NCBI GenBank assembly: GCA_947482345.1
Contig: CANKJN010000006.1
Span: 1 to 54,945 of the forward strand
Reading direction: 5' to 3'
DNA from: Spartobacteria bacterium
GTDB taxonomy: Bacteria; Verrucomicrobiota; Verrucomicrobiia; Chthoniobacterales; UBA6821
Length of the DNA: 54,945 bases
Shown: piece after piece, positions 1,583 through 17,695 of the stretch
How the letters are laid out: each line of letters starts with the position of its first letter
Numbering within the stretch: the stretch's first letter is position 1
Made by a program: the position numbers and the translations under genes
The notes under the pieces: model-generated
Seen by the model: only the letters and a program-made list of their open reading frames with translations
Told to the model about the DNA's origin: nothing
The model's database searches: none

Positions 1583-1901
1583 ACCGGGTTTTGCACCTAA
1601 GGGTTGCAAAATCCGCTCCCGCCTCCTTCACCCGCAATCTGTAGAGCGTCGTCGTCGTAGGTGAGACCCGATTCGTTGGGGTGCCCTCCGACCATCCCGC
1701 ATTACACCCTCCCAGAGTAACGTAGCCACCGCTCTAGGGCCTGTTAAATGTTTTTGTAGCCATTATTAGGGGCGTCATCGGGCACTCAGCATTGTTGGAT
1801 CGCTCAGTCAGTTGCACAACTCAAGATAACCGGAGGGATGACAACAACGCCACGCTCCAAAAGAACAGGCCGAAAAGGATGATTCCTATTGTTAGTTGGT
1901 A

Positions 1902-3515
1902 TTAATCGGAAGATGCCGATGGCAGGAGGGGGAGACCTAGCTCTGCCAAGAATTCGTTGTGCTTCGCCGTTGCCTTATGGATGGCTTCCTCGATTTTTAC
2001 CAACTCGCCGTGCGTTGCCTCTAGGTTGATCTCAGGTTGGGCCTCCGCTGTGCTGATGTAGCGGGAGATGTTGAGGTTGAAGTCATGCTTCTCGATCTCT
2101 GCCATCTCCACCCGACGGGAGTAGCGGGGCTCCTCAGTACGGCTCTGGTAGGTCTCGATAATCTTCGCGATATCCTCGTCACGCAGGCGGTTCTGGCGTT
2201 TGCCTTTCACGAAGTGCTCGGCGGCGTTGATGAAAAGCACGTCGTCGGGCTTCTTGCATTTCTTGAGCACGAGGATGCAGACGGGGATTCCGGTGGAGTA
2301 GAAGAGATTGGCTGGCAGGCCGATGACGGTATCGATGTGGCCGTCCTTGAGCAGTTTGGTGCGGATGCGTTCCTCGGCTCCGCCACGGAAGAGCACGCCG
2401 TGCGGCAGGATGATGGCCATCACGCCTTCGTCTTTGAGGTAGTGGAAGCCGTGCAACAGGAAGGCGAAGTCAGCGGCGGACTTGGGGGCGAGGCCGTGGC
2501 TTTTGAAGCGCACGTCGTCGGCCAGCGCGTCGGTGGGTTCCCAACGAAGGCTGAAGGGAGCATTGGCCACGATGGCGTCGAAACTCGGCTTCTTGGCCGG
2601 GTTCTGCTCCCGCATCATGTCCCATTCGTTGAGAAGGGTGTCGCCGTGGAAGATCTCAAACTCCGAGTCCTTCACCCCGTGCAGCAGCATGTTCATGCGG
2701 GCCAGGTTGTAGGTGGTGATGTTTTTCTCCTGGCCGAAGATCTTGCCGATGGTGCCGCCGGCCTTGTTCATCCTTTTGCGGACATTGAGAATCAGCGAGC
2801 CGGACCCGCAGGCGAAGTCCAGCACACTTTCCAGGCGTTTCTTGAGGCCGGTCTTCGGTTCCTGGCTGTCCAGCGTGACGATGGCGGAGAGGATATCGGA
2901 CATCTGTTGCGGGGTGTAAAACTCGCCAGCCTTCTTGCCGGACCCCGCGGCAAACTGACCGATCAGGTATTCATAGGCATCGCCCAGAGCGTCGATGTCC
3001 GTGGAGAAATCAGCCAATCCCTCGGCGATCTTCTGGATGATGGTGCAGAGCTTGGCATTCCGATCCGCATAGGTCTTGCCTAGCTTGGGGGAACTCAGGT
3101 CGATCTCCGAGAACAGGCCCTGGAAGGTGCTCTCAAAGGATTCTGTCTCGATGTATTTGAAGCCCGCTTGCAGCGTGTTCAGCAGCTCCGCATTCTGGGT
3201 GCGGGCCTGGTTGGCGATGCTGTTCCAGAGGTGTGCGGGCTGGATGACGTAATGCACCTTACGGCGCATCTGCTTTTCGAACTCCGGGATGTCGTCCACG
3301 TTGTTCGCATACCAGAGCGCCAGAGGCACCTTGCGGGTGTCGTCGCCCACTTCGGGGTAATCCCTCCCCAGTTCCTTCTTCGCTGCCGTCTCATAGTTGT
3401 CGGAGAGGTAGCGCAGGAAGAGGAAGGAGAGCATGTAGTCACGGAAGTCATCCGCATCCATCGCCCCGCGTAGTTGGTCGGCGATGCTCCAAAGGGTATT
3501 GCCCAGTTGAGTCAT
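1902..3515 (-). CDS. hsdM: Type I restriction-modification methyltransferase subunit M
   Basis: LWSIADQLRG N-terminus, GEFYTP, motif I DFACGSGSL, motif IV variant NAPF, LPHGVLFRG. Confidence 0.97.
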   Translation of the reverse strand: MTQLGNTLWSIADQLRGAMDADDFRDYMLSFLFLRYLSDNYETAAKKELGRDYPEVGDDTRKVPLALWYANNVDDIPEFEKQMRRKVHYVIQPAHLWNSIANQARTQNAELLNTLQAGFKYIETESFESTFQGLFSEIDLSSPKLGKTYADRNAKLCTIIQKIAEGLADFSTDIDALGDAYEYLIGQFAAGSGKKAGEFYTPQQMSDILSAIVTLDSQEPKTGLKKRLESVLDFACGSGSLILNVRKRMNKAGGTIGKIFGQEKNITTYNLARMNMLLHGVKDSEFEIFHGDTLLNEWDMMREQNPAKKPSFDAIVANAPFSLRWEPTDALADDVRFKSHGLAPKSAADFAFLLHGFHYLKDEGVMAIILPHGVLFRGGAEERIRTKLLKDGHIDTVIGLPANLFYSTGIPVCILVLKKCKKPDDVLFINAAEHFVKGKRQNRLRDEDIAKIIETYQSRTEEPRYSRRVEMAEIEKHDFNLNISRYISTAEAQPEINLEATHGELVKIEEAIHKATAKHNEFLAELGLPLLPSASSD

Positions 3516-3553
3516 AGAATTGAGAAGTGAGAATTTTGAAGTGAGAAAGTCAT
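3512..3553 (-). other. 13-codon bridging mini-ORF (MTFSLQNSHFSIL) encoded by a repeat arm
   Basis: ATG overlaps the four-helix-bundle stop (ATGA) and its TGA overlaps the hsdM ATG (ATGA); translation not shown. Confidence 0.45.
3516..3549. repeat. 7-nt periodic arm D (TGAGAAG family)
   Basis: agaat-tgagaag-tgagaat-tttgaag-tgagaaa; 3524-3547 matches 4939-4962 at 23/24; inverted relative to 3910-3943 and 4984-5010. Confidence 0.85.
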
Positions 3554-3909
3554 GGAGATTTCAGTTTTTTGACGATGGTTGTGAGGATGGCGACAAGTTG
3601 ATTCGCCTCGTCGAGGAGGGGTGTGAGTTGCCGTTCTGGGAGAATATCCGCAGCGAGGAGGAGGCGCAGCCAATAGTGGGTTTCGCGGGCTTCTTTGAGT
3701 GAAATAGAGACTTTGGAAAGAAAATCGGCGCGGCTTTGTCCACCCTTGGATTCTTCCAGATTGGCACCGACTGAAGTGCCGGAACGCAATAGCTGATTTG
3801 CCAAAGTCCGCGACACTCCCGGTTTCTCGTCCAACACTTGACACAGCTTTATTACCCGCACCGCAAAGGTAAAGGCACGTTCTGCAATTTCCTGTGGCTC
3901 CTCACTCAT
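3550..3909 (-). CDS. Four helix bundle protein (TIGR02436 / 23S rRNA IVP / bAvd-like family)
   Basis: QLLRSGTSVGANLEE...SRADFLSKVSISLKEARETHYWLRLL family signature, 119 aa. Confidence 0.93.
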   Translation of the reverse strand: MSEEPQEIAERAFTFAVRVIKLCQVLDEKPGVSRTLANQLLRSGTSVGANLEESKGGQSRADFLSKVSISLKEARETHYWLRLLLAADILPERQLTPLLDEANQLVAILTTIVKKLKSP

Positions 3910-3943
3910 TTTTCTAAATTCTCACTTCTCACCTCTCACTTCT
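3910..3943. repeat. 7-nt periodic arm C (CTTCTCA family)
   Basis: ttttctaaattctcacttctcacctctcacttct, inverted partner of arm D across the four helix bundle gene. Confidence 0.85.
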
Positions 3944-4937
3944 TCCGTTTCTTGAGTTTGGTTTCCAGTGCTTTGAGGTCGGCCTCATCCTGTTGATCGG
4001 CTTCGATGGCCTCGCGATTTTTGCGGTCTAGGTCGAACTTGATATAGAGTTTTCCGGTGCGCTCTTCCATCTGCTCATTGCTGATGGAACCCGCGTGCGT
4101 GAGCAGAGGGAAGCCGTTGGAGGAGATGATCTGATCCACATTCTCCCTCCAGAAGGCCATGCGCGTCTCCCGCTTGCTCTTGGCCCTCAGTTCGGCGGTT
4201 TCCAGGAAGATGACCACCAATCGGTTCAGGTTGTCGATCTCGTCCTCCGTCAGGTAGTTCTTGGCCACGAGGATGTCTGCCTTGCGCACCTTGTCACCCT
4301 TCCAGGCGAACAGGCCGAAATGCGGATCGGCAGTATTGGCCCGGGAGGTGATGAGTTCGGCGGCGGTTTTCCGCGTCACGGCAAAAATGAGCAGGTTCTG
4401 CACCGTTGCGAAAAAGACCTGCGTGGTCTTGTCGCTCTTGTCGTAGTCGCTACTCAGGGCAAAGAGGTCACGCACCTTCTGGTAGAAACGCTTCTCCGAG
4501 GCCCGGATGTCCCGGATGCGCTCCAGCATCTCGTCGAAGTAATCCGGGCGGCCATCAGGGTTCTTCAGACGCTCATCATCCATCGCGAAGCCCTTGATCA
4601 GGAATTCCTTCAGGACCGTGGAGGCCCAGCGGCGGAACTGCACGCCACGAGGCGAGCGCACCCGGTAGCCCACGGCCAGAATGGCGTCCAGATTATAAAG
4701 GGTGACGGAACGCTGCACCTCGCGCTCCCCTTCGATTTGAACTACCGAGGAATCCTCGGTAGTTGCCTCCCGGCTCAGTTCCCCATCCTCGAAGATGTTC
4801 TTCAGATGCAGCCCCACATTGTCCGTGCTTACATCAAAGAGCTGGGCCATCTCTCGCCGCGAAAGCCAGACGGTTTGATCCTTGGGCCGCAGCTTGATCT
4901 GGCTGCGCCCGTCTTCGGTGGTGTAGAGAACAATCAT
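3936..4937 (-). CDS. RhuM-family (virulence RhuM) protein
   Basis: IVLYTTEDG...YNLDAILAVGYRVRSPRGVQFRRWA...DYFDEMLERIRDIRASEKRFYQKV; family common in type I R-M loci. Confidence 0.92.
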   Translation of the reverse strand: MIVLYTTEDGRSQIKLRPKDQTVWLSRREMAQLFDVSTDNVGLHLKNIFEDGELSREATTEDSSVVQIEGEREVQRSVTLYNLDAILAVGYRVRSPRGVQFRRWASTVLKEFLIKGFAMDDERLKNPDGRPDYFDEMLERIRDIRASEKRFYQKVRDLFALSSDYDKSDKTTQVFFATVQNLLIFAVTRKTAAELITSRANTADPHFGLFAWKGDKVRKADILVAKNYLTEDEIDNLNRLVVIFLETAELRAKSKRETRMAFWRENVDQIISSNGFPLLTHAGSISNEQMEERTGKLYIKFDLDRKNREAIEADQQDEADLKALETKLKKRKK

Positions 4938-5010
4938 TGAAGTGAGAATTCTGAAGTGAGAAGCGAGAAATGACTGAGGTGACTTTTCTACGATCTCACT
5001 TCTCTCTTCC
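4938..5010. repeat. Cargo-free inverted pair of 7-nt periodic arms (B 4938-4970, A 4984-5010)
   Basis: tgaag-tgagaat-tctgaag-tgagaag-cgagaaa followed by ttttctacgatctcacttctctcttcc. Confidence 0.8.
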
Positions 5011-5052
5011 TCGAAAGGTTTTACCCAGTTGTTTTTGGTTGGTGGAGGTCAT
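4996..5052 (-). pseudogene. Orphaned hsdM N-terminal stub (MTSTNQKQLGKTFRGREK)
   Basis: QKQLGKT resembles the usual HsdM start; nt 5014-5031 match hsdM 3492-3509 at 15/18. Confidence 0.7.
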
Positions 5053-5085
5053 GCAGATCGGTAGCTGAGCAGGTTAATAAGAAAA

Positions 5086-7311
5086 TTATGGAGCTACGCC
5101 TATCACAGTGCACATGGAGGTGTAGTGAGGGAGGTCTTTCGCCTTTAGGGCTTCAATGACTTTTTTGACGGTGTTCTGCGCATTGGAAATAAAGTTTGGT
5201 TGCTGGAGAGCACGACTCCATCCCTGCAAGTGTGAAGCATCGTTAGAAAACTTCTGGATTTCTGTCTGATCAACATCCGCATCAAATAGAAGGTCGAGTT
5301 TCTTGTACCACTCTGGGACACAGGGCTTTTTGAAACCAAGGTATGCTTCGAGGAACTTACGCAGCAGGTTGGGTGAGGTATAAGCCTCATGAAGCGTTGG
5401 CGCTTGTGATGAGGAGAACTGGTGCAACTGGTCAAACACAAACTGGTATTCAGATTTGTATTTCCGAAGGAGCTTTGGAGTGTCTTCCAGCGTAGAGTGC
5501 CATAGGTGGGTGGGCTCATCTCGGTATCGCCGAGTGTAGTAAGAGCACGCATCGCCGCGATTGGTATAGTTTGGCTTCAAAAACCAATCATCCTTTAACA
5601 GTGTGTAAAGCTCACTGTTGTGCGTGGAGACAAAAATCTGTAAACACGGCTCCAGCTTTTTTGTGATCAACGCATAAATGGCGTAGATGTGGTTCGAATC
5701 GAGACTGGAAATGGGGTCGTCGATGAAGACAATCGTTTGATTTAGTGACGCGCCGTTGTTCTCAAGTGTAGCAAGGAAATAGGCAAAGGTGATGGCGGTC
5801 TTTTCGCCTTCGCTAAGGTTGCTGGCTGGTGCCCCATCGCGCCGAAACTCAAATGAGCCTCCGGGGATTTCAGCAACTGAGATGTTGTTGTCCGGCAGAA
5901 GAAACTGAACCGTCTCGTTGATCTTTTGCGCTGCGATGGATTGCTGCTGAATCTTCGCCTCGATTGCCGCCTTCTTGCCTGCAATCCTATTTAGTGAATC
6001 TTGCGCTGCATTGACCTGATCCATGGCGGCTTCAATTGCCGATTCCCTGCCTAGGACATTGTTGTCCTTGTAAAAGCTCGCAGCATGATGCTTATCGACT
6101 GCCCCTTTAGCAGCTCTTTTCTCAACGTCGATCTGTGTGCGCTTTTGATTGTGGTCTGTGACAAGCGCGTTGATGTCCAACACGAGCTGCTCAATTTCAG
6201 AGGCGCGGCCGGTAGCGACAACGCAAGCGAGCGGAGTTTCCAGGCTTAACTGCTTCAGCTTAGCAAGCTGTGTGAGTTCACCGACCGCCGCCCTTGCCCA
6301 AGTGGCCCATTCTTCGATCCTAGTCTTCAACGCAACAAACTGCGCCCGTAGGTCTGGAACAAAGTCACGTTCATCGGGAAGCTTAATGACCAGCTCTGCT
6401 TCTTCAAGTGTGGCGACTTGAGAAGCCACTTCTGCGGTTAAATCTTCGTAAGCTTCGGAGAAGTGCTTTTGCAGGGCGGTGAGACGCTCCTCAGGAATTT
6501 CTGATCCACAGAATTCGCACTGCGACGAACCCACATGATGCGACAGGCCTGTTCGTATCCATGATTCTAGGTCACGATTTTCTTTCAGTTTGGTTATGGC
6601 CTCGTTCGATGCGGTCTTCTGCATTACCGCTTGCAAGGTTAACCGCAAAGCGTCTGGATTCTCTGCTGGAGCGTTCACAGTATTGATGTTAGCCCATTGT
6701 TCTGTGCTGTGGACTAGCGCCACCTTTGCTTGGAGGTCCTTCTCGGTGAGAATAAAAGCGTCTGGCGTCGCTTTGACTCGATCAATTTCAGCTACGAGTT
6801 TGGTGCGGTTATAGGTTCTGTCTCCTGTTAAGGTGCCAAAAGACCTGGCATGATTTGTCCCTAACGAATCAAGTTCGTTTTGTAGCCGCCGGTGGTTCTC
6901 GGAGAGCCGTTCTTTGATACCTACAATTTTCGTCTCGTGCTCATTCAAACGACCAATTCGATTGCGCAGGTGGATGGTATTGCCGCCGACAATGAATACT
7001 GAAGGGGCTTGATGTTCCTGTAGAAAGTTGCGCTGAATGAAGTCGCGGTTAAAGACCTTTATGCGCGGAGGATTCGCCAGATTGGCGTGCGTCATTGTAG
7101 CTCCGCCTTGAAGCTCAACCTCGAACTGGCTTCCCTGCCACTGTGCGATTTGGTTTGGTTCAGCAAGAATCTGAAACAGCCGAGACAGCGTGGTTTTTCC
7201 CGAGTAATTCCAGCCGTAGATAAGGTTGCGCTTGGCAAAGGGAGTTGTGCCGCCCCATTGAAATTGGCGGTAGTTCCCGAAGTTCGTGAGGCGGTTGATT
7301 CTGCAGATCAT
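5086..7311 (-). CDS. AAA_13 ABC-type ATPase, RloC-like anticodon nuclease candidate
   Basis: Walker A GWNYSGKTT, coiled coil with zinc-hook CEFC, signature LSEGEK, Walker B IDDPISSLD, STHN, HEPN-like C-terminus NLLRKFLEAYL...NDASH; located between hsdS and hsdM. Confidence 0.85.
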   Translation of the reverse strand: MICRINRLTNFGNYRQFQWGGTTPFAKRNLIYGWNYSGKTTLSRLFQILAEPNQIAQWQGSQFEVELQGGATMTHANLANPPRIKVFNRDFIQRNFLQEHQAPSVFIVGGNTIHLRNRIGRLNEHETKIVGIKERLSENHRRLQNELDSLGTNHARSFGTLTGDRTYNRTKLVAEIDRVKATPDAFILTEKDLQAKVALVHSTEQWANINTVNAPAENPDALRLTLQAVMQKTASNEAITKLKENRDLESWIRTGLSHHVGSSQCEFCGSEIPEERLTALQKHFSEAYEDLTAEVASQVATLEEAELVIKLPDERDFVPDLRAQFVALKTRIEEWATWARAAVGELTQLAKLKQLSLETPLACVVATGRASEIEQLVLDINALVTDHNQKRTQIDVEKRAAKGAVDKHHAASFYKDNNVLGRESAIEAAMDQVNAAQDSLNRIAGKKAAIEAKIQQQSIAAQKINETVQFLLPDNNISVAEIPGGSFEFRRDGAPASNLSEGEKTAITFAYFLATLENNGASLNQTIVFIDDPISSLDSNHIYAIYALITKKLEPCLQIFVSTHNSELYTLLKDDWFLKPNYTNRGDACSYYTRRYRDEPTHLWHSTLEDTPKLLRKYKSEYQFVFDQLHQFSSSQAPTLHEAYTSPNLLRKFLEAYLGFKKPCVPEWYKKLDLLFDADVDQTEIQKFSNDASHLQGWSRALQQPNFISNAQNTVKKVIEALKAKDLPHYTSMCTVIGVAP

Positions 7312-7314
7312 GAT

Positions 7315-8637
7315 TCAATTATCCTCTGGGGATGGGAAAAGCTGCTGCATCAGGCCTTTCTTGTGGGTCTTGAGGGCTTCGTGCTTTTGGGTTTGCGCGG
7401 CGATGAGGTCGTCGAGGCTGGTGAGGCAGTCGGCGATGCGTTGTTGTTCGGCTATTCTGGGACAGTGGATCTCAAACTCCTTTATGCCCTGAGTCGTTAG
7501 GTTCGTGAAAACTCCTCCGTGTGTTGCTCCGCGTTCAAACTGGTTGCGAAGCGTACTCAATGTATGGAATAGAAAATCCTTATCCGCTTGCAACTCGTCT
7601 ATATCCACGAGTGCCAAGAAACCGTCGTGAATACAGGCGTCGACTGCCAGAAACGATACGATTCCAACCACCCCCGAGCAGACGATCGTTAGAGTTCCGG
7701 CTGGGCAAGGTCGGCTCATTGTTGCGCCTTCCTCGGTGAGTGAATCAATGCGAGGCGTAACCCATTTTCCATCTCGTGTGACATCCTGCACCATCAGTCG
7801 AGGAACAGGACCGCCAAAGAAACGAGGATCACCCTGTGGTCGAGGGCTAGAGCCTCTGATAACACGACTGATTTCATCCAATCGCACCCGCACCCACTCC
7901 CCGGCGTTTTGGAATTCGGGGAAGCGGAGGCGGGGTTGGGTTTCGCCTTCGCGGGGGAAAAGCTGCTGCATCAGCCCTTTTTTATGGGTCTTGAGCGCGT
8001 CCACTTTCCGCGCTTGCGCGGCCATCAGCTGGTCCACCGAACTCAGGCACTCGGCGATTTTTTGTTGTTCGGGTTCGTCTGGCCGAGGTGCGGCGGTGAA
8101 GAGGAATTGGGAGATAGAGATATTAAATCGCCCCGCTCTGGCACCTTCGTTTACTAAGCCACGCAGAGCCGCCTCATGGCTTCCAGATTCGAAATACCAT
8201 TCCCAAAAGACCGGGTTCTCGTCCGAGTGGAAGCGGAAGCACTTGTAGATCGGCGAAACGATTCCACCTTCATATTTGGACAGTCGTTTGATGGTGCCAA
8301 AGGTCGAGGCCTTTGTGGTTCTGTCGTTATAGACGAAGTCATTGCGGAGAAGTTTGAGGTATCTTTCCGCACTATCTCCCGCGATCTTTTTGCCGAAATA
8401 GTCGCTTTGAAGGACAAGGCCATGTTCGCCCGAGAGGCTCAATATATTATCTGCATCGCCCGTTACTGCCCTGTCAGATACGGGCCGGGCAATCTTCTGG
8501 AGTTGTGCCACCTTCCATCCTGCCAACTTCCGAAACTCCGGGAACCGCAGCTTCGGCACCAGCGCGGGCGTTGCCTCTTCCTTTTGGGTCTCACACGAAG
8601 ACACGAAGGCACGAAGGTTTTTGGATTTCTTAATCAT
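7315..8637 (-). CDS. hsdS: Type I restriction-modification specificity subunit S
   Basis: PKLRFPEF/PRLRFPEF and two EQQ.IA.CL.S.D...LKTHKKGLMQQLFP conserved blocks separating two TRDs; ATG 8637 preceded by GAGGG. Confidence 0.95.
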   Translation of the reverse strand: MIKKSKNLRAFVSSCETQKEEATPALVPKLRFPEFRKLAGWKVAQLQKIARPVSDRAVTGDADNILSLSGEHGLVLQSDYFGKKIAGDSAERYLKLLRNDFVYNDRTTKASTFGTIKRLSKYEGGIVSPIYKCFRFHSDENPVFWEWYFESGSHEAALRGLVNEGARAGRFNISISQFLFTAAPRPDEPEQQKIAECLSSVDQLMAAQARKVDALKTHKKGLMQQLFPREGETQPRLRFPEFQNAGEWVRVRLDEISRVIRGSSPRPQGDPRFFGGPVPRLMVQDVTRDGKWVTPRIDSLTEEGATMSRPCPAGTLTIVCSGVVGIVSFLAVDACIHDGFLALVDIDELQADKDFLFHTLSTLRNQFERGATHGGVFTNLTTQGIKEFEIHCPRIAEQQRIADCLTSLDDLIAAQTQKHEALKTHKKGLMQQLFPSPEDN

Positions 8638-8775
8638 GACATTCCCTCTTCTTCTTCGCGGCTTCGTGGCTTCGCGTGCGATTTTCCCCGAAACTCGGGA
8701 AACCATAGCTTCGGCACCAGCGCGGGCGTTGCCTCTTCCTTTTGGGTCTCACACGAAGACACGAAGGCACGAAGG
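8530..8775. repeat. Direct repeat with 158-bp period duplicating the hsdS 5' region
   Basis: 8549-8617 identical to 8707-8775 (69 bp); similarity extends to 8530/8688. Confidence 0.95.
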
Positions 8776-9278
8776 GGTTTTGTTCTGGAACTCATTGCAA
8801 TCCTCCTTCTTCTTCGTGGCTTCGTGCCTTCGTGTGAGTTTCCTGATTCAGTCTGAGTCGCGAGTTTTCAAATGACTGCGGCCCATTGAGGATGCGTTTG
8901 CAGCCGTCTTTGAAGGTGGATGCCCCGAAATTGATGAGAAGTCCCAACGGGAGACCGAGCAGACGAAGGTAGGTGAGAACTTGTTTGGAATGGACTGGAA
9001 GCAGATTCTCAACCGACTTCAGTTCGATCAAAAGTCGGTCTTCGACGATGATGTCGGCACGAAACCCTTCTTCAAAAGTCATTCCCATGAGCCGAATCGG
9101 CACGGGCACCTGCCGTTTCACAGTCAGACCTTGATCGGCAAGCATCTTTGCCAGAACCACCTCATAAACCGTTTCCAGTAAACCCGGCCCAGCCTCAACA
9201 TGCAGCTTGTAGCCACAGTCCACCACAATAGCGGATAACTCTTCCACATCCCTTCGCGCCTTCGTGTCTTCGTGTGAG
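8590..9278. repeat. Five 28-bp arms of 9-nt periodic repeat (CACGAAGRC family) in both orientations
   Basis: 8590-8617 and 8748-8775 (ctcacacgaagacacgaaggcacgaagg); inverted copies 8653-8680, 8811-8838, 9251-9278. Confidence 0.92.
8634..8795 (-). pseudogene. 53-aa duplicated hsdS N-terminal stub
   Basis: MSSRTKPLRAFVSSCETQKEEATPALVPKLWFPEFRGKSHAKPRSREEEEGMS; ATGA overlaps with GxxExxY stop and with hsdS start; absent from the ORF track. Confidence 0.75.
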
Positions 9279-12351: not shown

Positions 12352-12631
12352 TGTGATATTGTTATGGGCTTTCCCGGAGGGCTCCCTATGCGAACGAAGA
12401 GCTTCGGAAAGAGATGGGCACCATAAAATATGATCACAGTTATCGTTTAGGAGACGTTTTGACGAGAAGGTTTACCTTGAGACTGATCTTTGAAAAGACG
12501 AATGACCACACCCAGCACGAAGCTCGCCACGTCGGTCGGCCTCTGGAGTTCGGCTTCTGGATTTTCATGATGGATTTTCTTCGGGCTAGCGGTGCAGGGT
12601 AGACATCAGCCATCCCAAGTCCCCTTGATCC

Positions 12632-13057
12632 ATGACAACCCAAGACATCCGCTGGATTCAACGTTTCCAGAATTACCGGAAGGCTCTTGCCCAGTTGAAT
12701 GAGGCGCTTGACCTCTCGAAAAAGAGGGAGCTTTCTCCCTTGGAAACGCAGGGGCTGATTCATTCCTTCGAATACACCCATGAACTGGCCTGGAACACGC
12801 TGAAGGATTTCCTTGAGTCGAAGGGTGTTTCCAATCTCTACGGCTCCCGTGACACGACTCGAGAGGCATTTGCTGCAGGTTTGTTGGCTGAGGGTGATGT
12901 CTGGATGCAAATGATCCAGAGCCGCAATCAGACGACCCACACCTACAACGAGGAAACGATGGAGCAGATCGCCGCCGCCATCACGGGAAATTATGCGAAG
13001 GAGTTTTCAAAGCTACAAGCACGGCTTGGGGAACTGGAGGCTGGGGAAAACCACTGA
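12632..13057 (+). CDS. Nucleotidyltransferase substrate-binding protein, HI0074/HEPN family
   Basis: DIRWIQRFQNY...GLIHSFEYTHELAWNTLKDFL and HEPN motif RNQTTH. Confidence 0.92.
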   Translation: MTTQDIRWIQRFQNYRKALAQLNEALDLSKKRELSPLETQGLIHSFEYTHELAWNTLKDFLESKGVSNLYGSRDTTREAFAAGLLAEGDVWMQMIQSRNQTTHTYNEETMEQIAAAITGNYAKEFSKLQARLGELEAGENH

Positions 13058-13371
13058 TGAACTGGGGCCTCACCGATGCGGCCGTTGCGGCGATCCGCTC
13101 TGTCTTGGCCCGGCATCCGGAAGTGGAACGGGCCACCCTCTACGGGTCGCGAGCCAAGGGTACTTTCAAGCCCGGCTCTGACATTGATCTGACGCTCATC
13201 GGCCCAGGGTTGACGATGGAAATCCTTGGCCGGATCCAGGCGGAACTGGAGGAAGGATCGCTCCCCTATCATATAGACCTCTCCATCCTCTCCCAGATCT
13301 CACATGCCGAGCTCTTGGATCACATCAATCGGGTTGGTGTGGTTTTTTTTGATCGGCCCGACAGCACTTGA
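13057..13371 (+). CDS. Minimal nucleotidyltransferase (MNT), partner of the HEPN gene
   Basis: LYGSRAKG...SDIDL; TGATG overlap with upstream gene. Confidence 0.92.
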   Translation: MNWGLTDAAVAAIRSVLARHPEVERATLYGSRAKGTFKPGSDIDLTLIGPGLTMEILGRIQAELEEGSLPYHIDLSILSQISHAELLDHINRVGVVFFDRPDST

Positions 13372-13396
13372 ATCAACACTCCATCCACATTTCTGA

Positions 13397-13867
13397 ATGA
13401 ACATCCCCAACAATGACGTCACCTCGACGATACAGCTGGCACTGGCCCCGGTCTTTCTCCTGATGGCGGTGGTCACGCTCTTCAACGCGATCAGCGGCCG
13501 GTTGGCCCGGGTGATCGATAGGATGCGCTTCCTGCACAGGGAGCTCTTTGAGCAGGGAAGCATTCCCGAGCCCCTGGAGGACCATTACCGGATGGAATAT
13601 CCGCAGACCAAGAGGCGCGGACGACTCTGTGCGATCGCCATCTTCTTCGATGTGCTGAGCGGCCTGCTGATTTCCCTGACGGTTCTGGAACTCTTTCTCT
13701 TCCAGACCGGGGCGCCGCCCCATCTGCAGGGGATCTACGTGGTCTCCACCTTTGTCGGGGGACTGATCTGCTTCGTGATCTCCCTCGTGATCGTGCTTTC
13801 GGAGGTTGTTTACGCCTACCTCTCGGCGGCATGGGATCCCCCGATCCACCCCCGGAAAGATTCCTAA
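13397..13867 (+). CDS. DUF2721-family membrane protein
   Basis: IQLALAPVFLL...GRLARVIDRMR and three hydrophobic segments. Confidence 0.8.
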   Translation: MNIPNNDVTSTIQLALAPVFLLMAVVTLFNAISGRLARVIDRMRFLHRELFEQGSIPEPLEDHYRMEYPQTKRRGRLCAIAIFFDVLSGLLISLTVLELFLFQTGAPPHLQGIYVVSTFVGGLICFVISLVIVLSEVVYAYLSAAWDPPIHPRKDS

Positions 13868-13900
13868 GCAACCCCAACATGCCCTTCGAGGAACTTGCCG

Positions 13901-14073
13901 TTAGAGCGTTTTTGATTTGGATGTAGACAAAGGATTTGCGGATGTCATGAGGTGGTGTGCAAGTAGCAAGCGAAGCGGCTGTAGTCTTTGCGCTACAGCC
14001 CAAGCGATGCGACACAGCACAACGCCTCATGCCGCCGCAAAGAATGTCTAGAGATGAAGCAAAACCGCTCTAA
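13901..14073. mobile_element. 173-bp palindromic MITE-like element with TTAGAGCG ends
   Basis: ttagagcgtttttg ... caaaaccgctctaa termini and nested internal stems (tagac/gtcta, tttgcgg/ccgcaaa, catgagg/cctcatg, ggctgtag/ctacagcc). Confidence 0.7.
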
Positions 14074-15391
14074 TAGGAACGGCATAGGATTGCCGACCTG
14101 TCTCTCGCTGGTGACGGCGACGATGGTCGGGACGGGTGTCTACACGACATTGGGTTTCCAGCTTCAGGACCTGAGCAGCGGATTCTCAATCCTCTGCCTC
14201 TGGGTTCTGGGCGGTGTGATCTCGCTCTGCGGGGCTTTATCGTATGCGGAACTGGCTGCCAGGATTCCCCGCTCGGGCGGGGAATACACCTACCTTTCCG
14301 AGATCTACCACCCGGCGCTCGGATTCATGGCGGCATTCGTCTCCCTGATCGCCGGGTTTGCTGCACCGATCGCCCTCTCCGCGATGGCCTTCGGAAGCTA
14401 CCTCCATGCGGCGTTCCCCTTCTGCCCGGTTCATCTCTCCTCATGGATCGTGGTGCTGCTCATCTCCCTCTTCCACCTGCGTTCCCTTCAGGTCAGCTCC
14501 CTGGTGCAGGTGGCGGCCACGGCCCTGAAATTCCTTCTGGTGGCTCTCTTCATTGCGGTGGGTTTCTGGAGCCTCTTCCGGAATGCCGGCGCATGGGCCG
14601 TCCTCACCCCGCACGCACGTTCCGCGGAGGAGCTCCTGCGCCCCTCCTCGGGAATCGCCCTCATCTTCGTGCTCTACGCCTACTCGGGATGGAATGCGGT
14701 GACCTATCTGGCCGGGGAAGTCAGGTCGGGAGGGCGGATCGTCGGCCTCTCGCTGGTCCTGGGAACACTCGCCGTGGCTCTCTTCTACGTCATGCTCAAC
14801 GCCATCTTCCTGACCTCCGCACCCCTATCCGAACTGCGCGGGGTTCTCAATGTCGGCAGCGTCGCGGCGCAACACCTGATCGGCCCATCCGGTGGCCGGA
14901 TTATGTCGGGGATCATTTCCTTCGGACTCCTGGCCTCCATCAGCGCGATGGTCTGGGCCGGGCCGCGGGTAATTCAGCGCGTCGGGGAGGATTACCCGAT
15001 CTTTGCGTGGCTTGCCAGGCGCACGGCCACCGGAATCCCGCGCAGGGCGATCCTGCTGCAACTGCTGCTCGTACTCGGGCTGATCACGGGCGCATCCTTC
15101 GAGACAATCCTTCTCTTTGCCCAGATTCCACTGCTGCTCTGCCTGATCCTCGGCGTCTCCGGCTTGCTCGTTCTGAGGAAGAAGGAAGGCGGGTTATCAC
15201 GGACTCTTGGGAGCCGACCGCAGTTCACATGCCCCCTCTATCCCCTGCCACCCGTTCTCTTCATCCTCTGTTCGGGCGCCGGGCTTCTCTACTCGGCGAT
15301 CAGCAAACCGATGATTGCCCTTTCAGGGATGGTCATCATGCTGCTCCCTCTCACACTTTACCGATGGATCTCCAGGCAAAAGAAATCGTGA
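14054..15391 (+). CDS. APC-family amino acid permease
   Basis: MVGTGVY, GALSYAELAARIPRSGGEYTYL, YAYSGWN; about 12 hydrophobic segments. Confidence 0.93.
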   Translation: MKQNRSNRNGIGLPTCLSLVTATMVGTGVYTTLGFQLQDLSSGFSILCLWVLGGVISLCGALSYAELAARIPRSGGEYTYLSEIYHPALGFMAAFVSLIAGFAAPIALSAMAFGSYLHAAFPFCPVHLSSWIVVLLISLFHLRSLQVSSLVQVAATALKFLLVALFIAVGFWSLFRNAGAWAVLTPHARSAEELLRPSSGIALIFVLYAYSGWNAVTYLAGEVRSGGRIVGLSLVLGTLAVALFYVMLNAIFLTSAPLSELRGVLNVGSVAAQHLIGPSGGRIMSGIISFGLLASISAMVWAGPRVIQRVGEDYPIFAWLARRTATGIPRRAILLQLLLVLGLITGASFETILLFAQIPLLLCLILGVSGLLVLRKKEGGLSRTLGSRPQFTCPLYPLPPVLFILCSGAGLLYSAISKPMIALSGMVIMLLPLTLYRWISRQKKS

Positions 15392-16851
15392 AACGCTCCT
15401 GCGCGATGGCATGTGTCATCGCCGCCGTCTTCTGCCAAGGAATTCAGGCCGCCGATCCGCGCCCTTCCTCGCTTCAGGAGCAGGCGGAATTCCTGGCAGG
15501 CATCCCGCTAGGGAAGGATAGCATCCTCAGCGCCCTCCAGAAATCCCCGGAGTATCGGCAGCACCAGAAAGAACTGCAGGAGCAGTGGGCATTCTGCCGG
15601 AAGGTTCGCTACGGCACCATGCAGCAATGGGCTAGGGATCACCTGGCAAACATCCCCTCCACGCGCGGAGTGCTCCGGTATCTCTTCGGTGGCCCCGACT
15701 TCCTCAACGCCTATGCCTTTTTCCCTGATGCCCACGTCATGGTGTTGGGCGGCCTGGAGCCGGTGGGTGAAGTTCCTCCGCCCGAGGCGCTCGACCCGGC
15801 CTCTCTCGGCGGTGCGCTGAAGGCGCTCGACGAGGCGCTCCACACCTCCCTCTTCTGCGGCTACTTCATCACCAGCGAGATGAAGCCGCAACTCGTGCAG
15901 GGCTCTTTCCGCGGGGTTCTTCCGGTTCTCTACACGGAACTCGCACTGACCGGAAACGTGATCGATTCGGTCACGATGGTGAGGCCCTTCGGATCACCCG
16001 GTGTGCAGATCGTCTACCACCGTCCGGGAGGCCCTCCCCAGATGCTCTATTATTTCCAGGCCGACCTCTCGAACGGCAGGGAGTGCAGGCGCTTTCTCGA
16101 CTGGCTCGCGGATCTCGGACAAGGGGCTTCCTATCTCAAGGCGGCTTCCTACCTGCTGCCGCTTGATTCCTTCTCGGAAACCCGAAATTTCCTGATGAGA
16201 ACCTCTACCCTGATCCTGCAGGATGACTCAGGCCTTCCCTTCAGGAGCTTCCTTCCCGGGGAATGGAAGATCCAGCTCTTCGGGATCTACACCGAGCCCC
16301 TGGAGATCTTCAAGAGGGGAAAAGAGCCGGCGCTGAAGGAAGCCTATGAATCGCCTCTGCGGGTCGGCCCCCTCCCTTTCGGCGCCGGATACCATGTGAG
16401 CGCCAACGATGCCAATCTCCTGCTCGCCCTGCGCTCGGACTCAGGATCGGGTTCGGGCCAACTCCCTTCCGGAGAAATCATTCCGCCCATTCCGCCTATT
16501 CCCCCGATTCAAGCTCCGGCGGCACTTCCCGCGTTCTCCTCACCAACCCCCAAACCCAAGTCCGTTCCGATCCGCAAAGCCCTCCCGGTTCCCGTGAAGA
16601 AGGCGATTGCGGTCCCGACTCCCAGTCCGCCTCGACCGGAACCCATTTCCTCACCGACTTCTCAAGCAGTACCTCCGCAGGAAAGCGCGCGGACCGAGCA
16701 GATACTCATGCCGCCGCAAGAAACGGCAATGCCGGAACCAAGCACCATCCCGGAAAGGGTTGCACCCGAAAGCGTCATGCCGGAGCCCGCTCTGCCATCC
16801 GAGCCGGAATCAACCGTCCCGCTGACGACAAGCGGCAAACCGATCGATTGA
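15388..16851 (+). CDS. Exported conserved hypothetical protein with Pro-rich C-terminal tail
   Basis: GTGA overlap with permease stop, signal-peptide-like start, YLFGGPDFL, KAASYLL, LQDDSGLPF blocks. Confidence 0.75.
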   Translation: MKRSCAMACVIAAVFCQGIQAADPRPSSLQEQAEFLAGIPLGKDSILSALQKSPEYRQHQKELQEQWAFCRKVRYGTMQQWARDHLANIPSTRGVLRYLFGGPDFLNAYAFFPDAHVMVLGGLEPVGEVPPPEALDPASLGGALKALDEALHTSLFCGYFITSEMKPQLVQGSFRGVLPVLYTELALTGNVIDSVTMVRPFGSPGVQIVYHRPGGPPQMLYYFQADLSNGRECRRFLDWLADLGQGASYLKAASYLLPLDSFSETRNFLMRTSTLILQDDSGLPFRSFLPGEWKIQLFGIYTEPLEIFKRGKEPALKEAYESPLRVGPLPFGAGYHVSANDANLLLALRSDSGSGSGQLPSGEIIPPIPPIPPIQAPAALPAFSSPTPKPKSVPIRKALPVPVKKAIAVPTPSPPRPEPISSPTSQAVPPQESARTEQILMPPQETAMPEPSTIPERVAPESVMPEPALPSEPESTVPLTTSGKPID

Positions 16852-16852
16852 T

Positions 16853-17695
16853 TCAGCGAAGCAGGCGATCAGCCGCCGTCACCGCGACAAAAATGGCGCC
16901 GATCAGTGCATTGGTCTCGAAGAAAGCCTTGTTGATTAGGGCCAGGTCGAGCGTGCGGGCGATCCGGTGTTCGTAGAGAAGCAGAAAGGGAACGGGCAGG
17001 AGGCCCGCGAAATAGATCTTCCCAAGATGGGCCGAGAGACCGAATGCGATCAGGCCAATCAGCATCAGCAGATGGAGGAGGCCCGCCAGACGCAGCGCTC
17101 CGGGAACGCCGAGCCAGACCACCATCGAGCGGAGGCCTTCGCGCCGGTCGGCCTCCTCATCCTGAGTGGCGTAGATCATGTCGAATCCCGCCACCCAGCA
17201 GAGAACTCCCGCTGCGAGAATGATCGGCGGCCAGGCAAACGAACCGGTGACGGCAAGCCACGCACCCACAGGCGCCGCCGAGAGGGCCAGTCCCAGGAAA
17301 AACTGCGCCGCATGCGTGAAGCGCTTCGTGAGCGAGTAGAAAAAAACGAGCGCCAGTGCGACCGGAGAGAGCAGGAAACAGATCGGGTTGATGAAGGCCG
17401 CCGAGGCGATGAAGAGCAGGGCGCTCACGAGACAGGTGGTGATGGCCACCGCCCTACCGATGAGTTGGTGACGGCCGGCGGTGCGCGGGTTGCGCTTGTC
17501 GATCTCCCAATCGGCGACACGGTTGAAGGTCATTGCCGCCGTCCGGGCAAAGACCATGCAGAGCAGGATCAACCCGAAGATCCGCCACCCGGGAAACCCG
17601 TCCGCCGCAACGACCATCGCCCCGAGCGCAAAGGGGAGGGCAAAGACCGTGTGCGAAAACCGGATGAAGGTTAGGAAACGGGCGAGGGGAATCAA
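16853..17695 (-). CDS. UbiA-family prenyltransferase (4-hydroxybenzoate/menaquinone polyprenyltransferase-like)
   Basis: IRFSHTVFALPFA, NRVADWEIDKRNPRT, FDMIYATQD. Confidence 0.92.
   Translation of the reverse strand: MIPLARFLTFIRFSHTVFALPFALGAMVVAADGFPGWRIFGLILLCMVFARTAAMTFNRVADWEIDKRNPRTAGRHQLIGRAVAITTCLVSALLFIASAAFINPICFLLSPVALALVFFYSLTKRFTHAAQFFLGLALSAAPVGAWLAVTGSFAWPPIILAAGVLCWVAGFDMIYATQDEEADRREGLRSMVVWLGVPGALRLAGLLHLLMLIGLIAFGLSAHLGKIYFAGLLPVPFLLLYEHRIARTLDLALINKAFFETNALIGAIFVAVTAADRLLR

Follow-up and report, generated by a model that had tools for sequence, protein, structure and literature searches.

The window analysed here is a stretch of 54,945 nt of contig CANKJN010000006.1 (assembly GCA_947482345.1) from a Spartobacteria bacterium of the Chthoniobacterales, and it carries a type I restriction-modification (R-M) operon in which all genes between 1902 and 12351 lie on the minus strand (Table 1). 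In addition to the core genes hsdR, hsdS and hsdM, the operon contains an AAA_13 ATPase gene of the RloC/PrrC type, an rhuM gene and a gene for a four-helix-bundle (4HB) protein of the family known from 23S rRNA intervening sequences (IVS). Between the ATPase gene and rhuM stands a short open reading frame (ORF), here called the stub, which a first-pass annotation had read as the original start of hsdM, stranded by an insertion about 1.5 kb upstream of the rest of the gene. The order on the gene strand is stub, a hairpin of the repeat arms A and B, rhuM, the 4HB gene between the arms C and D, and hsdM. We conclude with high confidence that the stub is a non-functional relic of an hsdM start and that hsdM itself is complete. 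All coordinates are window positions unless a locus is named, and related loci, genomes and sequencing runs carry codes in L, G and X, respectively.

Table 1. Features of the type I R-M locus, listed in the order of the gene strand.
Feature	Positions	Strand	Evidence and remarks
hsdR	12351-9280	minus	profile match
GxxExxY/PDDEXK_3 gene	9283-8792	minus	profile match
hsdS	8706-7315	minus	profile match
AAA_13 ATPase (RloC/PrrC-like)	7311-5086	minus	PF13166 4.2e-121; 84% identical and colinear in L094
stub ORF, 18 codons	5052-4996	minus	relic of the standard hsdM 5' end in codons 1-12 (5052-5017), arm A sequence in codons 13-18 plus stop
arms A (4985-5013) and B (4939-4972), 12-nt loop	4939-5013	minus	gene-less hairpin of the 7-base-repeat arm type
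rhuM, 333 aa	3936-4937	minus	PF13310 4.9e-108; native accessory gene of the type I R-M family
arm C, purine-rich left arm of the cassette	3911-3946	minus	overlaps the rhuM stop codon; repeat analysis
4HB gene, 23S rRNA-IVS protein family, 119 aa	3550-3909	minus	PF05635 1.6e-21; TIGR02436 6.3e-27
arm D, pyrimidine-rich (gene strand) right arm of the cassette	3516-3548	minus	abuts the hsdM ATG
hsdM, type I methylase subunit, 537 aa	1902-3515	minus	N6_Mtase 2.8e-102; HsdM_N 2.3e-24; TIGR00497 395 bits

The hsdM gene starts at 3515 with MTQLGNTLWSIADQLRG, immediately after arm D. Its product scores 395.3 bits against TIGR00497 (cut-off 242.75) over residues 3-509, and the Pfam models HsdM_N and N6_Mtase are covered from 1 to 135 of 135 (beginning at residue 4) and from 2 to 308 of 311, respectively. 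The protein is thus a full-length member of TIGR00497 with both domains present. It is 89-94% identical to its 120 closest homologs, 98 of which begin with M[TN][DE]xNQKQLG[NK]T, the standard start that the first-pass annotation had surmised; 15 begin with MTQLGNT, 6 with MQQLGNT, and one is truncated. With MTQLGNT, the window HsdM is five residues (D/E-x-N-Q-K) shorter than the family standard. The long start is present at 79 of 80 unselected family loci taken from named genomes, L006 being the one with the short start. The latter is found in intact full-length genes of L006, L093 and L096; at L093 the searches found no stub. A split gene would have a downstream part that lacks an essential N-terminus, whereas here the domain models are covered from residue 3 or 4 onwards, and the short start recurs in 21 of the 120 homologs and in L093, with no stub found there. 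The claim that hsdM is split is therefore not borne out. At L098 (4149-4232), ACG stands in place of the ATG of the short-start hsdM and the HsdM match stops at residue 358, which probably marks a dead copy; L099 has the same match range.

To place the short start among its relatives, 13 loci that bear the cassette were aligned between the 4HB stop and hsdM codon 20. Seven of them (L095, L097, L100, L102, L103, L106 and L107) have the complete standard start, ATGACCGAC...CAAAAACAACTGGGC, after the right arm. The other six (the window, L006, L093, the L094 fragment, L096 and L098) have one arm variant, ...TCTCAATT..., and are without the 15 nt after ATGAC; because this variant is common to all six, they fit a single lineage. 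The third base of codon 2 varies among T, G and A, all of which specify Thr, in the window, L096 and L098, and on the simplest reading this base would have drifted after the deletion. Since the same arm type precedes an intact standard start in seven of the 13 loci, ATGACT may most simply be taken as hsdM's own ATG, followed by a 15-nt (five-codon) in-frame deletion. Alternatively, the start may have been supplied by the arm, but the same seven loci argue that it is probably not the re-created replacement start that had been proposed.

The stub begins with MTSTNQKQLGKT, its ATG lying 33 nt past the AAA_13 stop, and reads MTSTNQKQLGKTFRGREK before it terminates in the purine-rich arm A; the ORF coordinates agree here with the earlier description. 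The repeat scan likewise reproduced the duplicated codons (5014-5031 vs. 3492-3509, 15 of 18 positions identical, 83%). On its own this repeat is unremarkable, because the same 1.75 kb contains 20 families of direct repeats of 10-26 nt, and we count the stub as real because it is homologous to the standard hsdM start of the family. Compared with the 98 standard-start homologs, it has the most common residue at 10 of 12 positions, and 11 of its 12 residues are found in at least one of them. A degenerate 20-nt motif of the family has a single match in the window, at 5021-5040, and none of 100 shuffles had any match; in the 2.36-Mb genome the motif has one exact match and one unrelated match with two mismatches. 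Joined to the hsdM body, the stub gives a normal-looking N-terminus of the family, a proposal that the starts of the homologs support. Two doubts had been raised in advance, namely that close homologs might natively start with the short form and that the stub might score no better than random sequence. The first holds for a minority, 21 of the 120 homologs, and as to the second, the family motif matched at the stub and in none of the shuffles.

Stub and arm A meet at about codon 12, and the same junction is found in L094, L006 and L098. Two sources were considered for the bases that follow stub codon 12, the 3' tail of rhuM (CGNCGGAG...) and hsdM codons 13-16, and both were set aside, the matches being too short to decide.

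The arms themselves form a coherent set. On the gene strand, A and C are purine-rich direct repeats and B and D are pyrimidine-rich direct repeats; the repeat families at A and B are D1 (96% over 24 nt), D2 (81%) and I11, and C and D form the inverted repeat I1 (3516-3548 vs. 3911-3943, 33 nt, 79% complementary). Each purine arm is complementary to each pyrimidine arm, with duplex energies of -23.0 (A-B), -22.7 (A-D), -31.2 (C-D) and -35.4 kcal/mol (C-B). Against mononucleotide shuffles the z-scores are -4.4 for C-D and -3.0 for A-D, values that are inflated by the purine/pyrimidine skew. The A/B hairpin is present in the predicted fold but is no better than dinucleotide shuffles (z = -0.77), 45 of 200 of which fold at least as well.

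Could the pairing of A with D bring the stub and the hsdM body together in RNA, as the first-pass annotation had suggested? The arms would then pair in the transcript, and splicing, bypassing or a trans-translation-like joining would give a full MTSTNQKQLGKTLW... protein. The A-D duplex given above is consistent with this idea, but A-B is equally good and C-B is best, any purine arm pairing with any pyrimidine arm. The intervening 1.5 kb consists of two intact, conserved genes with their own stops, that is, of two separate ORFs and not of a self-splicing or processing RNA or an in-frame intein between two halves, and Rfam gave no match at E <= 1 over 3300-5300, hence no catalogued intron and no other RNA family. 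Moreover, the stub is decayed by a frameshift in L006 and none was found in L093. Among RNA runs, only X18 and X20 contained any of the stretch. Their five short contigs (90-99% likeness) cover portions of the 4HB gene, of arm D together with the beginning of hsdM, and of rhuM; no RNA joint is seen in these contigs, which are too few and too short to show anything. The sole joint across 3501-5027 is in a DNA run (X9; depth 2.9, side 27) and has three extra letters. It was rejected as a product of excision and reads as the uninterrupted standard allele of another organism. Pairing of A and D as a means of joining the halves thus finds no support, and we regard joining at the RNA level as extremely implausible.

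The arms are better understood from the gene that two of them enclose. Copies of the 4HB gene that are 84-97% identical adjoin hsdM in L093-L107. We collected 68 loci by the 4HB protein or PF05635 (from the same genome and from metagenomes, 31-100% identity), each with at least 90 nt of flank on either side. Their flanks pair with a median z of -2.5 (29 of 68 below -3 and 40 below -2), figures that are indicative, the control being mononucleotide shuffles only. In 15 loci that were inspected, purine-rich tandem 7-base repeats lie upstream of the 4HB gene and their complement lies downstream; the heptads vary by lineage (GTGAGAA, GTGAAGG, TTAGAAC, TTGAGAG) and the complementarity is kept. The element in the window accordingly shows both marks of a four-helix-bundle cassette, an ORF of PF05635/TIGR02436 and complementary arms of a kind that varies by lineage. 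We also considered the arms as a genome-wide repeat and rejected this, since the exact 12-mer GAGAAGTGAGAA occurs in the 2.36-Mb genome only at this locus; the arms are therefore local to this cassette lineage. The 4HB cassette is bracketed by C and D as inverted 7-base repeats, and A/B is a bracket of this kind without a gene, so that the arms belong to the cassette type and not to hsdM. The genome has eight PF05635 matches in all; PF05635 genes at L085-L092 of this genome and in many unrelated metagenome contigs (L110-L172) sit within inverted 7-base-repeat arrays.

The arrangement recurs in contigs from other sequencing runs. In X5, which possibly stems from the same sampling campaign as the window, the pieces 3399-4518 and 4755-5300 have no differences, and the metagenomic locus L094 is colinear with 7452-3385 at 88% identity, from the 3' end of hsdS through the AAA_13 gene, the stub with its junction, rhuM and the 4HB gene to arm D. 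In L094, however, the MTQLGNT copy is an hsdM fragment of 44 codons, which is followed by a DUF3800 gene and then by a full hsdM with the standard MTEANQKQLGNT start. L094:3846-8160 thus holds three hsdM 5' copies, namely the 12-codon stub, the 44-codon fragment coupled to the DUF3800 gene and the full standard-start hsdM of 547 aa, and we conclude from this layout that 5' copies of different hsdM alleles were stacked by successive exchanges. Fragment and full copy differ in nine synonymous and no non-synonymous codons in L094, and the L006 fragment differs in five codons, all synonymously, as would be expected for two alleles that were each once functional elsewhere. At L093 the order is hsdS, hairpin, rhuM, 4HB cassette and short-start hsdM. 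In L006 and L098 the stub is joined straight to the left arm of the 4HB cassette (L099 has the same blastn pattern as L098), a state that could arise from that of the window by recombination between the direct repeats A and C. Within the genus the locus is patchy, any match being found in four of 22 other genomes. In the relatives G021 and G046, stub-like sequence runs on without a break into the hsdM body, in line with an hsdM origin of the stub.

Relics of hsdM 5' ends are not confined to loci with the cassette. Additional hsdM 5' relics, 31 to about 148 nt in length, are present in seven of the 80 unselected loci (L006, L014, L019, L034, L035, L039 and L050). A 4HB gene is missing from six of the seven, so that the formation of relics is a general habit of this locus type. 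Relics of about 46 codons are also present in L095, L096, L097, L102 and L144. Signs of decay include a frameshift in L006, a stop in L097 and three to five non-synonymous differences in 41 codons in L095, L096, L097 and L102. At L096 (3158-4110), a match to hsdR residues 1-262 (3158-3943) passes without a gap into a 46-codon hsdM relic, after which come a Bro-N/DinD-like gene, the 4HB cassette and the short-start hsdM; hsdR is apparently truncated there, and the locus looks decayed or rearranged.

Where no hairpin follows, 12 of 13 relic ORFs end at the start of the next gene, either overlapping it through ATGA or GTGA or lying at most 5 nt from it, the exception being L097 with its premature stop. 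The coupled relic ORFs, with breakpoints at 31-60 codons, are those of L014, L019, L034, L035, L039, L050, L094, L095, L096, L102 and L144, and the next gene is rhuM, DUF3800 or of the Bro-N type. The 12 cases amount to about seven junction classes by our grouping, and the expectation for a random frame is one in three, which suggests that the coupling of relic ORFs may reflect selection for translational coupling.

These couplings raise the question of whether the window stub is itself kept as a translated leader ORF. Retaining the native translation start of hsdM, it would keep ribosomes on the mRNA past the RloC-like gene, open the A/B hairpin and help the expression of rhuM and, indirectly, of hsdM. 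The window and L094 agree in the ATG, in the frame and in 36 of the 39 bases upstream, and the overlaps of the longer relic ORFs in the relatives are in line with such a role. The window stub, however, has its stop in arm A, with about 58 nt left to the rhuM ATG, and coupling by overlap does not apply; its counterpart in L006 is frameshifted and none was found in L093; and its residue 3 (S) occurs in none of the 98 standard-start homologs. We therefore consider a leader function improbable.

The gene between the two hairpins is at home in this position. The usual order in the family is hsdR, hsdS, a variable accessory gene and hsdM, the variable slot before hsdM being about 1.2 kb long. In 64 of the 80 loci, hsdM has hsdS upstream of it on the same strand, and hsdR usually precedes hsdS. 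A near-full rhuM is found upstream of hsdM in 22 of the 80, and in 14 it ends within 60 nt of the hsdM ATG, which is then typically overlapped by the rhuM stop. A reading in which rhuM is part of an intruding insertion does not hold against these 14 loci, where it lies directly upstream of hsdM. The rhuM product (start at 4937-4923) begins with MIVLY right after arm B in the window, L093 and L094, and its homologs begin with M[NS]DLILY. In the window, we infer that the AAA_13 gene was the accessory gene that preceded an earlier copy of hsdM.

Taken as a whole, we think it rather probable that the stub is the scar of a recombination event. The stub would represent the first 12 codons and the native upstream region of an earlier hsdM allele, which once followed the RloC-like gene. 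An incoming segment of the L093 type, consisting of the hairpin, rhuM, the 4HB cassette and an hsdM with the five-codon deletion, would have replaced the resident hsdM. One crossover would lie within the homologous body of hsdM or beyond it, and the other end would have been joined illegitimately at about codon 12 of the resident hsdM, by homology-facilitated illegitimate recombination or an equivalent unequal exchange. Because the incoming hsdM would have brought its own start, methylase function would never have been interrupted, and the old start would have been left to decay.

Several observations weigh against this account. Both the order of events and the mechanism are read from the sequence, and the exact breakpoint lies somewhere between codon 12 and codon 16. 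In L006 and L098, and in L099 to judge by blastn, the cassette has the stub directly at its left arm and the short hsdM directly at its right arm, and CAACTGGGCAACA stands on either side, a layout that resembles the insertion of a cassette with a target duplication of 13-15 nt. The 12-codon stub and the short start co-occur in all five stub loci, and the stub is absent from all seven cassette loci with a standard start, which fits one event that created both, although simple linkage would explain it too. In addition, rhuM in this lineage starts with ATGATT right after a pyrimidine arm, and its product is shorter by two residues than the homologs; gene starts may therefore be remodelled or supplied by the arms.

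The same observations favour an alternative in which the 4HB cassette (arms and gene) was inserted in hsdM codons 8-12, duplicated about 15 nt (CAACTGGGYAAHACC) and provided, with ATGACN at its right end, a new in-frame start; rhuM and the arms B and C would later have entered the left arm. It would account for the L006/L098 layout of stub, left arm, 4HB gene, right arm, ATGACN and CAACTGGGC, for the constant company of stub and short start (5/5 vs. 0/7), and for the parallel ATGATT start after arm B at rhuM. Nevertheless, in seven of the 13 loci the same cassette stands before an untouched standard start with no evident flanking duplication, L093 has the short start and yet no stub was found there, and six of the seven relic-bearing unselected loci are without any 4HB cassette. 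For the window, an extra insertion of rhuM inside an arm would be required, and the duplicate there is identical at only 15 of 18 positions, compared with 13 identical nt in L006. The insertion near hsdM codons 8-13 that had been proposed thus survives, narrowed to the 4HB cassette, as a live rival, and falls away for rhuM, a native neighbour of hsdM in 14 of 80 loci. We hold an insertion of the cassette to be possible but somewhat unlikely.

The recombination scar has counterparts in known systems. In homology-facilitated illegitimate recombination and in arrays formed by sequential displacement, one end recombines in a conserved gene and the other joins illegitimately nearby, so that a truncated remnant lies beside the new gene, and in such arrays repeated rounds stack the remnants, as in L094 with its three hsdM 5' copies (for these mechanisms, see PMC3240628 and PMC5361080). 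In contrast to those scars, what remains here is the 5' end of a type I methylase gene within an operon, in many cases fused in frame to the start of the gene that follows, and the mechanism proposed is read from the sequence. A second parallel is given by type I R-M loci in which accessory defence-type genes (RhuM, DinD/Bro-N, RloC/PrrC-type AAA_13, DUF3800) lie between the core hsd genes. RhuM is enriched beside type I loci, and one locus has dinD and a RhuM-domain coding sequence between the core coding sequences, according to PMC9881135, which deals with inversions of hsdS, unlike the hsdM 5' relics described here. In the literature that we searched, no description was found of hsdM 5' relics flanking accessory genes or of PF05635 cassettes in R-M loci.

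Two further comparisons concern the cassette and the replaced start. ORF-bearing intervening sequences of 23S rRNA (PF05635/S23p family), which are processed by RNase III, also have a small 4HB ORF inside a long inverted repeat, whereas the element here lies between rhuM and hsdM, where Rfam gave no rRNA match, and has arms built of arrayed 7-base repeats. Some integrating elements, for example phages that enter the ends of tRNA or protein genes, carry a replacement copy of the interrupted gene end. The interrupted gene is then functional through an end supplied by the incomer and a short duplicate remains, a similarity to the locus described here. In contrast to such elements, the eight flank ORFs that were scanned (12440-17695 and 176-1582) gave no match to integrase, transposase or invertase families, and the range of relic lengths (31-148 nt) means that no single attachment site exists.

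The remainder of the operon has features of its own. The AAA_13 product matches PF13166 over its full length (406 bits) and has a weak CxxC zinc-finger-type match at residues 254-281. The operon is probably read as a single transcript, with each gene translated from its own start; a scan of 1700-7400 for promoters and terminators found no promoter-like site and a single weak terminator-like site on the minus strand, within hsdM. Just upstream of hsdS there is a 158-nt tandem repeat of 85% identity (8530-8683 and 8688-8841, minus strand), each unit of which combines a hairpin of CACGAAG/CTTCGTG 7-base repeats with the first 60 nt or so of the conserved hsdS start (...TPALVPKL[RW]FPEFR). The hsdS gene thus also has a 5' stub, in the duplication at 8530-8841, and both ends of the adjacent GxxExxY gene are built from CACGAAG/CTTCGTG heptad arms. 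A nucleotidyltransferase substrate-binding/HepT-like gene at 12632-13057 on the plus strand, likely a component of a toxin-antitoxin system, adjoins the start of hsdR, and an HTH_17 gene at 176-604 lies past the end of hsdM. The same genome has a second hsdM-like gene (G000, contig C8:17515-18990; L002), which is 41% identical and contains one in-frame TAA.

For annotation, hsdM should be called intact and the upstream ORF a gene remnant, not the first exon of a split gene. We also consider, as a speculative and rather doubtful extension, that the hsdM 5' relics may be selected adaptors and not mere debris in this type I R-M family, which is widely transferred and keeps 77-94% HsdM identity across phyla. 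A newcomer accessory gene (rhuM, Bro-N/DinD-like or DUF3800) would arrive together with a fresh hsdM, and the old start would be kept as a short translated ORF, joined in frame with its stop overlapping the ATG of the newcomer. If so, translation, and hence transcription, would continue as far as the essential methylase gene, the hsdM 5' repeats would offer homology handles for swapping or looping out cassettes, and in the lineage of the window the arm hairpins of the 4HB cassette would take over the role of spacer. Neither the in-frame coupling of scars nor 4HB cassettes with 7-base-repeat arms that fill gene junctions was found described in the literature searched. The locus shows a conserved, horizontally spreading type I R-M family that gains and swaps accessory defence genes, with the body of hsdM as the homologous anchor, and the stacked hsdM 5' scars are a record of its history of segment exchange. 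The event is ordinary in kind, and the locus family is unusually dynamic, with a legible record of accessory-gene turnover.

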